Sequence record: MH992122.1
Reading direction: 5' to 3' (one strand)
Source: Escherichia phage OLB35
Length of the DNA: 64,000 nt
Of the stretch, positions 3,452-7,252 are shown piece after piece. Position 1 is the stretch's first letter; every line of letters starts with the position of its first letter. The translations under genes were made by a program, and so were the position numbers. A model generated the notes under the pieces. It searched no databases and was not told where the DNA came from. It saw only the letters and a program-made list of their open reading frames with translations.

Positions 3452-3757
3452 TTATTTTCCTCGACATTCTTTAATGAAATTTTCTAGATTGGTAGATTCA
3501 ATAGCTTTTTTACGAGCTTCTGCGTGTTCTTCTTCAGACAATTTACATTTATAATTAACCCAGACGTTATGGTCAAAACTAGTCGTGGCATATAATAACA
3601 AAGCCCCGACGAATAATAAAAATGGTGATAAGAATACAAAACCAGGAACACCATCCATATCGTAAGCCTTTTGTAATACTGCAACAGAAAGAGCTACGTA
3701 AAAAGGTGATACAAATATAGTTAAAAGACCAATTCGGTTGGTTTCGCCTAATTTCAT
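3452..3757 (-). CDS. hypothetical membrane protein
   Basis: 101 aa, two hydrophobic segments; C-terminus NFIKECRGK is part of the junction motif. Confidence 0.5.
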   Translation of the reverse strand: MKLGETNRIGLLTIFVSPFYVALSVAVLQKAYDMDGVPGFVFLSPFLLFVGALLLYATTSFDHNVWVNYKCKLSEEEHAEARKKAIESTNLENFIKECRGK

Positions 3758-3827: not shown

Positions 3828-4784
3828 TTATTTGAAAGGTTTTACCATATGGAAATTTTGTTTAAAACGTTTTACATAATCGTCATGTCCTAAGCTTTGG
3901 TACATACTTACAACTTTGCTGTAGTTTTCCCAAGCGTATTCACGGAACCAGCCTGACGTGATTGAAGTACAGACTTTTTCTAATGCCATCATAAAACTAT
4001 CACGTGGATGGATTTCAAAGTTATTAGGAATCTGAGAACGTTCTAACGCTAGTACACATGATTCTTCGTATACGCCGGCTAATTTGACCATTTCTGGTAA
4101 TGATTCGAACTTCTCGCGTGAGGTCATGACTTCAGAACCATCTTTCATATAAAATGTATACGCTGGACGGTCTGTTAGTGCAATGGCTTCGTGAATAGTA
4201 TCATGGTCATACGTATAGATGTCATCTTTAAAGAATGCGCTTTTAGAAGTGTCAAGAACTGGGTGAGCATAGTTCAAGGTTTCTTTCTGGCGTTTCAGCA
4301 TAATTTCAGTAAGTTCATCGTTCAGTGTAACACCTTTACCACGAAGATACTGAATATGGTTCATAGTCTTTAAAAAGAATGGATTATTTTTCTTGAAACG
4401 ATGAGACATCTTAATTGCAAGACACATCTCAGGAGTTGCCCAGTAAAACCCGTTCAAACGGTCTTTAGTCAAATTTTTCTTGGCGTATTTTAAAAGGTCA
4501 TAAGAAGACGTGAAATCTTCAGGAGTGAGTTCACCGACTAATTCACGGACATTAGTGATTGCCGGAACAATATATGCTTCAAAATGAGTTTCGCGTCCAT
4601 TATGGAAGCATTTGAAAACTTGGACATCAGGGTTATCTTGGTGAACATATACACCCATCATTTGATTTTTGAATACATTCCAAGAACCTTGGTCCGCAAT
4701 AAAGTCCCAATCACTATTTTTGATAGCGCTAGAATCAATAAGGCCGTGATAGTGAAGTGCACGAGAACCAATAACTAACATCAT
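3828..4784 (-). CDS. hypothetical protein, possible minimal nucleotidyltransferase fold
   Basis: 318 aa; N-terminal GS...SDWD resembles the GS-x(n)-D-x-D NTase motif (spacing longer than typical); no confident homolog recalled. Confidence 0.55.
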   Translation of the reverse strand: MMLVIGSRALHYHGLIDSSAIKNSDWDFIADQGSWNVFKNQMMGVYVHQDNPDVQVFKCFHNGRETHFEAYIVPAITNVRELVGELTPEDFTSSYDLLKYAKKNLTKDRLNGFYWATPEMCLAIKMSHRFKKNNPFFLKTMNHIQYLRGKGVTLNDELTEIMLKRQKETLNYAHPVLDTSKSAFFKDDIYTYDHDTIHEAIALTDRPAYTFYMKDGSEVMTSREKFESLPEMVKLAGVYEESCVLALERSQIPNNFEIHPRDSFMMALEKVCTSITSGWFREYAWENYSKVVSMYQSLGHDDYVKRFKQNFHMVKPFK

Positions 4785-4812
4785 AATATTTTCCTCGGAT
4801 TAATTCATTAAC

Positions 4813-5064
4813 TTAAATTTCGCGACATGCGATATTATATTCATCCCAGAGGTCGTCATGTGAAGCCTCTACCAATGGAACGATTGTGCCGTTTATGTCT
4901 TCATTATAAGGGCAAATTGTACAGTGCGCATCTTCGAATCGGATGCCTTTGTGTTCAGATTTTTTATAACGCATATCGAATATCTTTGCAAACTTTTCAC
5001 GAGTAATAGTTTTAGCAACTACTTCTGTTCCTATACTTTCGTAATAAACCATTGTTGTCTCCAT
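4813..5064 (-). CDS. hypothetical protein
   Basis: 83 aa ORF downstream of the PeSL-like promoter at 5074-5110. Confidence 0.45.
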   Translation of the reverse strand: METTMVYYESIGTEVVAKTITREKFAKIFDMRYKKSEHKGIRFEDAHCTICPYNEDINGTIVPLVEASHDDLWDEYNIACREI

Positions 5065-5073
5065 TTAATTTGA

Positions 5074-5110
5074 TAGGACTACTATAACATAGCCCTATCT
5101 TGTTGTAAAC
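5074..5110 (-). promoter_or_regulatory. early promoter in a stem-loop (PeSL-like)
   Basis: minus strand GTTTAC (5105-5110), 18-nt spacer, TATAGT (5081-5086); GATAGGACT...AGCCCTATC inverted repeat. Confidence 0.5.
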
Positions 5111-5114
5111 TGTT

Positions 5115-5312
5115 TTAGCAAGAATAACTAGATGATACCCAGCCTTGAACAGTAATACTATTATTTGATAACGAGATTGCGTCCTGGAGATTCAGACCTG
5201 CATTATCTTCAATCCACAATGTAACTTCTTCACGCTCTTCGGTTGCAATCTGGAACAGGTTTTCTAGAGCAGCTACTGCCGTACGTACAGCACAATCTAA
5301 TTCACGAGACAT
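5115..5312 (-). CDS. small protein, paralog family member P3 (C-terminal GWVSSSYSC)
   Basis: 65 aa; conserved C-terminal tail shared with the ORFs at 5322-5595 and 5605-5910. Confidence 0.5.
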   Translation of the reverse strand: MSRELDCAVRTAVAALENLFQIATEEREEVTLWIEDNAGLNLQDAISLSNNSITVQGWVSSSYSC

Positions 5313-5321
5313 ATGATTTCC

Positions 5322-5595
5322 TTAACAAGTGTGAGAAGATGCAACCCAACCACCATCTTCAAGGCTCAAGTTGTAGTCGTATTGGTAAACGTCGGCCCAT
5401 TCAGCATAACCGTTTTTTTGTACAACGTTCAAGATCGGCTTTAAGATGTCCTGGTGAATGATAGGTTCCACCCATGCCATAAGCTGGATACAAGTTGAAT
5501 GTTGTGTTTTGTTTATTAGCAATTTCTTTGGCAGCCTCAATAGCTGCATAGATTTTTGCTACAGCTTCAGCCAGTTCGGTTTGTTCTTTAGACAT
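5322..5595 (-). pseudogene. paralog P2 with frameshift at a homopolymer
   Basis: N-terminal frame (5401-5595) and C-terminal frame (5322-5549, ending GGWVASSHTC) differ by one nt; the switch maps to a 7-nt homopolymer at plus 5413-5419. Confidence 0.45.
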
Positions 5596-5604
5596 AATGA
5601 TTCC

Positions 5605-5910
5605 TTAGCACAACGCAGAAGACGAAACCCAAGCACCTTCAGTAATAACGTAACCATTACCTTCACGCTTAACATCGCCACCATTATTTTCAATTTCATC
5701 TTTCATCCACTGGGATACGATTTCACCCTTAGGATAATAAGTACGACCGCTACCATAATCACCTACAGAAAATGATACTGCATATTGGTCTGCGATCTTT
5801 GTTGCTTCTTCTTCGATACGTTCAGCTTGATTCAGAAGTTTATAAATTGCATCTGAAGCGGATTTGGCATCATTAAACTCTGGTACTTTAATTTCAATAA
5901 TCTTACTCAT
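5605..5910 (-). CDS. small protein, paralog family member P1 (C-terminal AWVSSSALC)
   Basis: 101 aa; shares MSK start, YGxGxTY and NGY motifs and the C-terminal tail with P2. Confidence 0.55.
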   Translation of the reverse strand: MSKIIEIKVPEFNDAKSASDAIYKLLNQAERIEEEATKIADQYAVSFSVGDYGSGRTYYPKGEIVSQWMKDEIENNGGDVKREGNGYVITEGAWVSSSALC

Positions 5911-5942
5911 TTTCTACATTCCTTAATAAAGTTTTCGATTGT

Positions 5943-6332
5943 TTCATTTTCACGTTTAGCTAGGAGTTCATTATAACTAATCATTTGAGAAGCGTAAACA
6001 GCATAAATTCAGTTAAGGCTTTTGCATCTTATTTCCTTAACGAATTCCATAGCTTCTTCATATTCATACTTTTTAACAGCTTCGATTGTTTCATTTTCAC
6101 GTTTAGCTAGGAGTTCATTATAACTAATCATTTGAGAAGCGTAAACAACGCCGTCAATAAGAAATCCAACTAATCCAAAGGCAAATCCCATGCCAATACT
6201 CATAATAAAAATTAGAATGTTCTCACCAAGAGAAGGCCAGCATAAATTCAGTTAAGGCTTTTGCATCTTATTTCCTTAACGAATTCCATAGCTTCTTCAT
6301 ATTCATACTTTTTAACAGCTTCATCATACTGA
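5943..6332. repeat. nested direct repeats A (about 66 bp) and B (about 83 bp) in order A-B-A-(93 bp)-B
   Basis: A at 5943-6009 and 6090-6156; B at 6009-6091 and 6250-6332, near identical by eye. Confidence 0.8.
6009..6203 (-). CDS. small membrane protein (chimeric: unique N-term + repeat A + repeat B)
   Basis: 64 aa; C-terminal 22 aa identical to the C-terminus of the ORF at 6248-6640. Confidence 0.4.
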   Translation of the reverse strand: MSIGMGFAFGLVGFLIDGVVYASQMISYNELLAKRENETIEAVKKYEYEEAMEFVKEIRCKSLN

Positions 6333-6640
6333 GCTTGGGCTTTTGCGCACTGAACTTTCCATTCTCTTAATCGGGCTCTGTGATGACGTCCTTGGTACCA
6401 ATATCCCATCCAGTTAATAGGCATTAATAAAAACGGTACAATAAGTGGTGCGACGAACATTAATGAAAATGCTGCATCAGACGATATAACTTCACTAGAA
6501 TCTAAAACGGCTCCTATAATCATAAAGATTAAAAATGCTAAAGCTAAAATAGGGCCAAATAGTACTTCATTTGGGATTAATTTACGCTTGTATTCATACG
6601 CCCAGGGCTTACTTGGCATGTATAGGGTTGGCTTTGACAT
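6248..6640 (-). CDS. hypothetical membrane protein
   Basis: about 130 aa from ATG at 6640 (the track start at 6670 is TTG); two hydrophobic segments; C-terminus encoded by repeat B. Confidence 0.45.
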   Translation of the reverse strand: MSKPTLYMPSKPWAYEYKRKLIPNEVLFGPILALAFLIFMIIGAVLDSSEVISSDAAFSLMFVAPLIVPFLLMPINWMGYWYQGRHHRARLREWKVQCAKAQAQYDEAVKKYEYEEAMEFVKEIRCKSLN

Positions 6641-7211
6641 ATTCTCTACATTCCATAATAAATTGCTCAAGGATTAAATTGTTAGTGAAATTAGGACTAA
6701 CAACCATAGTTTCATAAAGCGCATCAATAGCACTTAAAGCATCAACTCTCTTAAGCAAAGGCTTGCCTTCATACATAGTTTCAGAATCGACGATTAACGT
6801 AAAGTAGTATTTTTTATTATCGACTAGAACTTCTGTATCGATATAAAACATATTAGTCCTCAGAAGCTTATCTCTAAAACCATAATAATCTTCAGAGCGT
6901 TCGCTGATATATTCCCATTCAGTGTTTAAACAACAAACAGACCACGTAGGAGCAACGAAATCAGTGAATCTAATATCATGGTCTGCAACTAGTTTAGCAA
7001 TAGCTCCGATATCATGAATCATAATACCTGGGGCTAATAAAGATTTTCTGCTATGGCTAGCCGTTTTCTCGGTGGTCTCATAAGAAGACGACCAGTACCA
7101 TTTACGTCCGGTTGCAACATATCGTAATGAATCAACTAAAGACGTAGGTGGATTTACCTTATCTCGGAACTCTTCGAACATTGAGTCAATATCATTATTT
7201 TGGTTTCGCAT
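6609..7211 (-). CDS. hypothetical protein
   Basis: about 200 aa from ATG at 7211 (MRNQNN) with SD AAGGAG; C-terminal region FIMECR is part of the junction motif. Confidence 0.5.
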   Translation of the reverse strand: MRNQNNDIDSMFEEFRDKVNPPTSLVDSLRYVATGRKWYWSSSYETTEKTASHSRKSLLAPGIMIHDIGAIAKLVADHDIRFTDFVAPTWSVCCLNTEWEYISERSEDYYGFRDKLLRTNMFYIDTEVLVDNKKYYFTLIVDSETMYEGKPLLKRVDALSAIDALYETMVVSPNFTNNLILEQFIMECREYVKANPIHAK

Positions 7212-7228
7212 GTTAACTCCTTTATTAT

Positions 7229-7252
7229 CCAAAAGGAGGACCGGAGTCCTCC
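7229..7252 (-). terminator. hairpin followed by T-run on minus strand
   Basis: stem GGAGGAC/GTCCTCC, loop CGGA, then TTTTGG on the minus strand; directly precedes the RBS of the next gene. Confidence 0.4.

Follow-up and report, generated by a model that had tools for sequence, protein, structure and literature searches.

A widespread family of small acidic phage proteins defined by a Cys-terminated tail and encoded beside a DUF7277/DUF7275 protein

Several described protein pairs, namely PII/GlnD, HepT/MntA, CitD/CitX, and MdcC/MdcG, share an arrangement in which a nucleotidyltransferase-fold enzyme acts on a Tyr or Ser residue of a partner of about 100 amino acids (aa) that is encoded nearby; CitX and MdcG attach a nucleotide-derived prosthetic group to a Ser residue of a small acidic carrier protein. 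Phages also encode small early proteins, such as Acb2/vs.4, Tad1/Tad2, and the Ocr-type mimics, which are often acidic and often located in variable regions; to our knowledge, a conserved Cys unit at the C-terminus is absent from all of these families, as is an enzyme that is always encoded next to them. Here we describe a locus of Escherichia phage OLB35, contained in a 64,000-nucleotide (nt) stretch of sequence record MH992122.1 (the window), in which three consecutive minus-strand open reading frames (ORFs; positions 5115–5910) encode small proteins with the same Cys-terminated tail and a gene farther downstream on that strand (3828–4784) encodes a 318-aa protein with the Pfam domains DUF7277 and DUF7275 (E = 2.9e-27 and 8e-79). 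The likeness of this locus to the GlnD/PII, MntA/HepT, CitX/CitD, and MdcG/MdcC pairs lies in architecture only and is an analogy: its small proteins have no sequence or fold similarity to PII, HEPN, or acyl carrier protein (ACP)-like proteins, and the larger partner matches no nucleotidyltransferase model. It further differs from those pairs by the C-terminal W-x-SSS-x-x-C unit, by the presence of several paralogs per enzyme, and by the occurrence of the family in phages. No fold or sequence similarity to Acb2/vs.4, Tad1/Tad2, or Ocr-type proteins was found either. The same small proteins are represented by phrog_899 and phrog_4882 and by ORF136c–139c of phage RB69, but these entries record neither a function nor a motif and make no connection to the partner. 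Our literature search found no paper that names the RB69 ORFs, cites the PHROG or DUF identifiers, or contains the motifs, and these genes are unmentioned in HIDEN-SEQ and in the accessory-gene screen of Silas et al. The combination of the tail family and the DUF7277/DUF7275 protein in one module appears not to have been described before.

The window belongs to a T-even-type phage of the Mosigvirus group. Copy 1 (5605–5910; 101 aa, small and acidic), copy 2 (5322–5595; a 90-aa paralog gene, split here by one extra base), and copy 3 (5115–5312; 65 aa) end in EGAWVSSSALC, DGGWVASSHTC, and VQGWVSSSYSC, respectively, with a TAA codon directly after each; the tail units WVSSSALC, WVASSHTC, and WVSSSYSC occupy nt 5608–5631, 5325–5348, and 5118–5141. 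The six frames of the whole window contain 532 stop-to-stop segments of 40 aa or more, and these three are the only ones that end in W.[SA]SS..C, against an expectation of 1.7e-4 per window, which bears out the shared tail pointed out in an earlier note on this DNA. The motif is found nowhere else in the window. The codons of the three tails differ: Val is encoded by GTT, GTT, and GTA in copies 1, 2, and 3; position −6 by TCG, GCA, and TCA; position −4 by TCT, TCT, and AGT; and the terminal Cys by TGC, TGT, and TGC. These synonymous differences, together with the retention of W, S, S, and C across 136 representatives of the family, place the conservation at the protein level, as had been proposed. 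Explanations at the DNA level, such as gene conversion or a conserved coupling signal, were rejected because the paralog tails differ synonymously and hundreds of divergent clusters retain the motif. The objection that the ORFs might not be translated was checked as well: across seven Mosigvirus genomes, the ratio of nonsynonymous to synonymous polymorphism (pN/pS) is 0.05 for copy 1, 0.12 for copy 2, and 0.02 for copy 3, and values of 0.02–0.12 mean that the genes are real, translated, and constrained by strong purifying selection.

The earlier note regarded the three ORFs as tandem paralogs, and this view stands for two of them. Copies 1 and 2 are clearly paralogous in sequence: both match phrog_899 (E = 1.3e-22 for copy 1 and 3.2e-18 for the repaired copy 2) and the same family hidden Markov model (HMM; E = 1.9e-32 for copy 1), although only positions 134–221 of the 221-position phrog_899 profile are covered. 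They also share the YG(S/M)G(R/G)T(Y/F)(Y/H) core, which reads GDYGSGRTYYP in copy 1 (a hairpin encoded by nt 5731–5763, following an N-terminal helix) and AYGMGGTYHS in copy 2. Copy 3 matches phrog_4882 over its full length (E = 1.1e-36), has a conserved N-terminus of its own (MSRELDCAVRTA..AALENLFQ), and has no YGxG core loop or hairpin; W, SSS, and C are invariant in its 18 orthologs. In a profile-profile comparison with hhalign, copy 3 aligned with the copy-1/2 family in the last 14 residues only (probability 78%, E = 1.8e-5). Thus, the C-terminal similarity holds up in an alignment, and the tail is what copy 3 has in common with the others at the profile level; judged from the profiles, a shared whole fold is not demonstrable. 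The MS(K/R) start that was also reported is present in all three ORFs (MSK in copies 1 and 2, MSR in copy 3); however, it is not a feature of the family, whose N-termini vary widely.

The breadth of the family became apparent when a 35-sequence profile was searched with HMMER against all 1.84 billion representatives, whereas word-indexed searches returned only a few relatives. The scan identified 724 clusters at 50% identity (E <= 1e-3), 107 of them at E <= 1e-10, and nearly all matches reach the last residue of the protein. Among the 136 listed representatives of these clusters, 127 have a terminal Cys; W is found at −8 in 126, S at −5 in 129, and S at −4 in 126, and position −6 is S, A, or P. 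A single Cys is present in 84 of the 136, and in those of them that end in Cys it is the terminal one. The family as defined here ends in W-x-[SAP]-S-S-x(0-2)-C, with no residue after the Cys, and all three proteins of the window carry this pattern. This is a large family of strongly acidic, folded phage proteins of about 65–110 aa, most of which combine a YG(S/M)G(R/G)TYY motif with an N-terminal helix that has ...IAD at its end; acidic and aromatic residues characterize the linker that joins this core to the tail, and the mean net charge is −8.2. The conserved residues of the core and tail are Y52, G53, G55, T57, Y58, W94, S97, and S98. Extra internal W-x-S-S-x-C units occur in 8 of 182 members, compared with 0.52 +/- 0.69 in shuffled sequences, and a WYPSSC paralog class has two units (e.g., WLNSSC...WYPSSC), with neither the two-residue spacer nor the hairpin. 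The tail is also kept in classes with unrelated bodies, namely copy 3, ...IWYPSSC, and FWYSSSMQNC.

Searches with tblastn placed the family in 484 phage records, which include T4-like phages of Escherichia, Shigella, Klebsiella, Enterobacter, Citrobacter, Serratia, and Aeromonas, as well as 99-kb Pseudomonas phages, rV5/phAPEC8-like phages, and jumbo phages. No relatives were detected in approximately 185,000 bacterial and archaeal genomes scanned with the single core pattern YGMGGT[YF]Y, which leaves the GDYGSGRTYYP subfamily outside the scan. In one metagenomic sequence, P0192 (153 aa), the small-protein domain is joined to an N-terminal stretch that matches residues 376–439 of UvrB (E = 2e-15); the sequence is possibly a chimeric ORF and possibly a real fusion.

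The synteny between the small genes and the partner gene is near-obligate and directional. In 41 loci anchored on the small family, a same-strand partner follows the small gene or genes wherever the downstream flank is long enough. In the reciprocal direction, 74 of 80 partner-anchored IMG/VR loci contain one to six same-strand small members, essentially always upstream and often only 0–100 nt away, whereas the tail pattern was found in none of 2,794 opposite-strand small ORFs used as a control. Genus counts from two independent tblastn searches were in close agreement, at 252/259 for Escherichia, 59/59 for Aeromonas, 34/35 for Klebsiella, 34/36 for Enterobacter, and 18/18 for Shigella. The pairing recurs in independent lineages, namely in Mosigvirus and Dhakavirus (one Dhakavirus locus has five tandem tail-bearing genes), in T4-like phages of Enterobacter, Klebsiella, Citrobacter, and Serratia, in 230-kb Aeromonas phages, in Acinetobacter Lazarusvirus, Phapecoctavirus, and Menderavirus, in jumbo Salmonella phages, and in metagenomic phages and small unrelated contigs. 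Named examples are the Salmonella jumbo phage SE_PL, Phapecoctavirus nieznany, and Stenotrophomonas phage IME-SM1. In Otagovirus and Pseudomonas phage PN09, the partner follows the small gene at a distance of about 400 nt, judged from the tblastn coordinates, and on two unrelated contigs a family member adjoins a DUF7275 protein of the same family as the one encoded at 3828–4784 in the window.

In Escherichia phage nieznany (locus L047, 2429–4445), the partner is directly preceded by three tail genes, and an annotated homolog of vs.4, the Acb2 cyclic-nucleotide (anti-CBASS) sponge, is interspersed among them. Sir2-like, DprA-like, and phosphatase genes are located near this array, and the locus looks like a counter-defense island.

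Nucleotidyltransferases of the Pol-beta type have the pattern hG[GS]-x(9-18)-[DE]h[DE]h and a third carboxylate on a later strand. In the partner protein, residues G6-S7 and D25-x-D27 are invariant in 15 homologs with 26–47% identity (two alignments), and E69 is invariant in a 12-sequence alignment only. The C-terminal domain is helical and highly conserved (KMSHR, YDHD..H, EE..LALER, and KVCTSITSGWFRE). Short forms of the partner (251–260 aa) from Streptomyces, Gordonia, and Vibrio phages keep the G-S...D-x-D pattern and the C-terminal domain, with most of the N-terminal sheet gone. The depositors of Lazarusvirus records labeled the protein a putative nucleotidyltransferase, whereas in all other records it is hypothetical. 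From these features we infer that the partner is a Pol-beta-type nucleotidyltransferase, although it matched no profile of known nucleotidyltransferases. A weak match to DUF6036 (E = 0.25) was seen, and weak Pfam matches pooled over the 15 homologs contained no recurring nucleotidyltransferase family. A profile of the N-terminal domain had no match among PDB sequences, and searches of PADLOC and NCBIfam with the partner gave nothing significant. The partner bears some likeness to Gad2, the anti-Gabija protein of SPbeta-like phages, a counter-defense protein whose N-terminus reads G-G...D-x-D and which is predicted to contain a nucleotidyltransferase domain (10.1101/2023.05.01.538930). However, Gad2 has 400 aa and differs in its C-terminal part, and the paper on it reports no accompanying small genes with such a tail (10.1101/2023.05.01.538930). 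Homology to Gad2 was rejected, as hhalign against Gad2 of SPbetaL7 (sequence taken from the supplement of that bioRxiv paper) gave a probability of 0.07% and E = 0.67.

The HMM and structure searches that the earlier note had suggested for the small proteins led to the 724 clusters and matched no known fold or function. An AlphaFold model of copy 1 based on the family alignment was predicted with a mean predicted local distance difference test (pLDDT) score of 92.3 and contains a long helix (residues 15–43) and a small antiparallel sheet, of which the hairpin formed by GDYGSGR is a part. Matches to this fold in BFVD were uncharacterized family members only, and fold searches returned no relative with a solved fold and no HEPN, PII, or ACP-like match. 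Nothing significant was found for the small proteins in Pfam, which has no entry for them, NCBIfam, or PADLOC. Three apparent identifications were discarded. A match of copy 1 to the XkdF peptidase (E = 0.007) scored 16.8 bits against a cut-off of 24 bits and was not seen with other members; matches of the family profiles to PDB sequences were spurious, involving coiled-coil or designed proteins only; and the label "inhibitor of prohead protease" on a dhakavirus homolog is an annotation-transfer artifact, because the neighboring names follow the T4 gene order on tiny ORFs.

We tentatively favor a model in which the array and the enzyme form one early module and the tail engages the enzyme, either as a modification site or as a docking element. 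According to this model, arrays of one to six translationally coupled small genes would be transcribed early, with the partner gene directly behind them, and their products would be used together with the enzyme early in infection, for host takeover or counter-defense. The invariant tail would be the element by which each small protein engages the enzyme, and the variable bodies of the paralogs would supply different activities or targets. One enzyme, varied bodies with an invariant end, and the occasional duplication of the tail unit are what would be expected if the tail meets the enzyme. A role in host takeover or counter-defense may be indicated by the acidity of the proteins, their presumed early expression, the variable region that encodes them, and the vs.4 homolog within the array of one lineage. 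The earlier suggestion of a tail that serves in modification, targeting, or interaction is a plausible hypothesis, which gains indirect support from the near-obligate synteny with a predicted nucleotidyltransferase, a feature that the note had not seen. Within the model, the tail would most likely be a site recognized and modified by the enzyme, at a Ser hydroxyl or at the terminal Cys; alternatively, it would be a docking motif. A more specific and doubtful version is that the DUF7277/DUF7275 enzyme covalently modifies the W-x-S-S-S-x-x-C end and thereby arms or targets early host-takeover or anti-defense effectors; the Ser triplet may then be O-nucleotidylylated, a prosthetic group derived from a nucleotide may be attached, or the terminal Cys may react. 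If so, phages would possess a protein-modification system not known before, in which each enzyme has several paralogs as substrates.

Several observations weigh against this model. The nucleotidyltransferase call comes from a short motif pattern and the depositors' annotation, no known nucleotidyltransferase was matched in Pfam, NCBIfam, or PDB sequences, and a single-sequence model of the partner (pLDDT of 36) was unusable. Six of the 80 partner loci have no small member, and no tail-bearing gene was detected within 3.5 kb of the short partners of actinophages and KVP40-like vibriophages; the partner can therefore exist without the small proteins. The array and the partner of Mosigvirus are not adjacent, as an unrelated gene for 83 aa, which has a promoter-like site of its own, lies between them. 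Individual paralogs are dispensable: copy 1 is broken in RB69 and copy 2 in the window, so no single copy is essential. Finally, the tail in the copy 1 model is the last strand (residues 93–96) followed by a short helix (97–100), both with a pLDDT of about 90 and packed in the fold. This prediction argues against a floppy appendage and disfavors a simple disordered targeting peptide; the tail could instead be primarily structural or form part of a ligand pocket.

This packing of the tail makes a structural or ligand-binding role the main rival. According to this alternative, which is possible and, in our view, doubtful, the small proteins are autonomous effectors (acidic inhibitors, DNA mimics, or binders of nucleotides or other small ligands), the tail and the YGxGxTYY hairpin build the core or a pocket, and the nucleotidyltransferase is a co-regulated neighbor in an anti-defense island or the maker of the ligand. 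The compact predicted fold fits this idea, as do the aromatic, Gly, Ser, and Thr character of the conserved residues, which resembles that of ligand pockets, the strongly negative mean net charge, the vs.4 homolog in the nieznany array, and the unrelated gene with a separate promoter-like site ahead of the Mosigvirus enzyme. On the other hand, copy 3 and the WYPSSC class keep the tail without the hairpin, and the same-strand, directional adjacency of array and enzyme is maintained across lineages with differing neighbors, often at 0–100 nt, which is much tighter than co-location in an island.

The remaining alternatives are less likely. Nucleotidyltransferase-fold toxins with small upstream antitoxins are known, for example AbiEii and MenT, and a small gene that overlaps or abuts a downstream gene for a nucleotidyltransferase-like protein of about 300 aa resembles such operons. 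The small proteins could thus regulate or inhibit a possibly toxic enzyme, binding it through the tail to restrain it or to direct its specificity. We consider this unlikely, as up to six divergent paralogs per enzyme would be atypical of antitoxins, some lineages have the partner without small genes, no PADLOC matches were obtained, and the family resides in lytic phages, with no homolog detected by the core pattern in the bacterial and archaeal genomes. The type VII toxin-antitoxin system MNT-HEPN in particular finds no counterpart here: copy 1 has no His and hence no R-x(4-6)-H motif, and there was no HEPN match.

Maturation as a ribosomally synthesized and post-translationally modified peptide (RiPP) is highly unlikely. 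In this scenario, the partner would activate Ser by nucleotidylylation, and the S-S-S-x-x-C-COOH end would be dehydrated and cyclized to a ring of the lanthionine or AviCys type. A single enzyme does follow several genes that resemble those of precursors and encode a conserved Ser/Cys end, the tail unit is repeated internally in some members, and the spacing of Ser(−4) and Cys(−1) is that of the S-x-x-C-COOH end of AviCys peptides such as epidermin and cypemycin. However, the small proteins are predicted to be folded, with a packed tail, rather than to present an unstructured core peptide; their N-terminal and core regions are strongly conserved, unlike disposable leaders; the spacing is not kept in the WYPSSC class; and no LanB-, LanM-, LanKC-, LanC-, or LanD-type domain was found in the partner or its neighbors.

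The break in copy 2, which the earlier note had placed at a 7-nt homopolymer, is real in this sequence and is not conserved. The first frame encodes 64 aa (5401–5595) and the second, which contains the tail, extends over 5322–5549; the extra base lies in the run at 5413–5419, which is T7 on the plus strand and A7 on the coding strand. Removal of one A yields a 90-aa protein identical to its orthologs in Shf125875 and CCU7. In an alignment, Shf125875, Mizar, and JK45 have A6, and the CCU7 sequence translates to the intact 90-aa protein. When a 101-nt query was used, 105 phage records matched; all 60 that were listed span 100 nt, and none of those listed is 100% identical. The break is either a strain-specific one-base insertion or a homopolymer sequencing error and is not part of the mechanism. 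Only five single-base indels distinguish a 35.7-kb block of the window from Shf125875, so the assembly is not generally error-prone. Another public copy 2, P0046 (75 aa; a 10-member cluster from 5 contigs), is frameshifted in the same place and in the other direction; P0046 is named for mar005P1, whereas the mar005p1 record OZ035759 has the intact length, a discrepancy that fits sequencing error at the homopolymer. The situation in the RB69 reference is the reverse of that in the window: copy 1 (ORF138c/139c; locus L048, 1935–2241) is broken by a 1-nt insertion after TGG and also has a Ser-to-Pro change in its tail, and copy 2 is intact. A programmed frameshift or a phase-variable switch at the A7 run is very unlikely and the least credible of all the alternatives: A7 is a slippery sequence, a second frameshifted variant exists in P0046, and single-base indels are otherwise rare in the window, but the 60 listed records are one base shorter and the four relatives have a single intact ORF, the frame is restored only by a +1 shift (or a transcript shorter by 1 nt) while a classical −1 shift leads to the third frame, and the mar005p1 case suggests an error.

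The array is located in the variable region downstream of e.3, between the lysozyme gene e and the tRNA genes, and window positions 4700–6400 are 98.6% identical to Shigella phage Shf125875 and 95–98% identical to many RB69-like phages. The RB69 orthologs are ORF139c/138c for copy 1, ORF137c for copy 2, and ORF136c for copy 3. The three genes are spaced by 9 nt, each TAA overlaps the next Shine-Dalgarno sequence (TG[CT]TAAGGAA...ATG), and the ATG of copy 1 overlaps the stop codon of the ORF upstream; this arrangement fits coupled expression. About 60 nt upstream of copy 1, within the 3' end of the e.3 remnant, a minus-strand match to a sigma-70 or T4-early-like promoter (5970–5998; GTTTACG-17-TATAAT, with 10 of 12 consensus positions) was found by a consensus scan only. 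The early promoter and accessory island proposed for this family are therefore supported in part: the variable e-to-tRNA location and the T4-early-like match agree with them, but the match is one to a consensus and the region is not enriched in such sites (20 found versus 18.5 expected). The partner gene lies about 330 nt downstream of copy 3 on the same strand. The 83-aa ORF between them (4813–5064, minus strand) belongs to phrog_3723, a group of unknown function, and is not a member of the tail family; it has its own promoter-like site (5081–5109, minus strand; TTTACA-17-TATAGT with TG), and a dhakavirus homolog occupies the same position. Its center is rich in Cys and His (HCTICPYNED...H). 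Genes for ipI, ipII, and ipIII are neighbors in the same genome region. T4-type internal proteins are packaged in the head and have an N-terminal capsid-targeting sequence that is cleaved by gp21; the small proteins have no sequence similarity to them.

The sequence upstream of the array is a mosaic. The e.3-like membrane-protein gene (5934–6322) has the minus-strand order Y-Z-X-Y-X, where X is an exact 67-nt repeat (5934–6000 and 6081–6147) that contains the promoter-like site upstream of copy 1, and Y is an exact 85-nt repeat (5999–6083 and 6238–6322) that corresponds to the 3' end of e.4. An intact e.3 of 360 nt is present in Shf125875 and Mizar, whereas the CCU7-type phages (29 records) have no e.3 and a Y-X junction; the region in the window looks like a recombinant or duplication between both forms or like the assembly of a mixed population. 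Similar peptides of the form ...E-x-F-(I/V)-K-E-(C/I)-R... are encoded at the ends of the genes at 3452–3757, 5907–5984, 6009–6203, 6248–6670, and 6609–7232, and in locus L004 (1613–2495). The genes are neighbors but otherwise unrelated, and in each case the codons of the peptide overlap with the start of the following gene or with its ribosome-binding site. Homology between these repeated gene ends could be what drives the shuffling of e.3. A perfect GC-rich hairpin (7235–7252; GGAGGAC-CGGA-GTCCTCC) between the e.5-like and e.6-like genes is terminator-like on both strands.

With the synteny described here, proteins annotated so far as "hypothetical" become parts of a defined module of two components, and the tail pattern combined with the partner gene provides a simple and highly specific annotation rule, with no hit among the background ORFs. 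The family spans many lytic phages of Gram-negative hosts, from T4-like and rV5-like to jumbo phages. If the enzyme modifies or uses the tail, the module would represent a new phage-encoded protein modification or a new logic of effector delivery. If it does not, the small proteins would still constitute a large pool of candidate early host-interaction factors.

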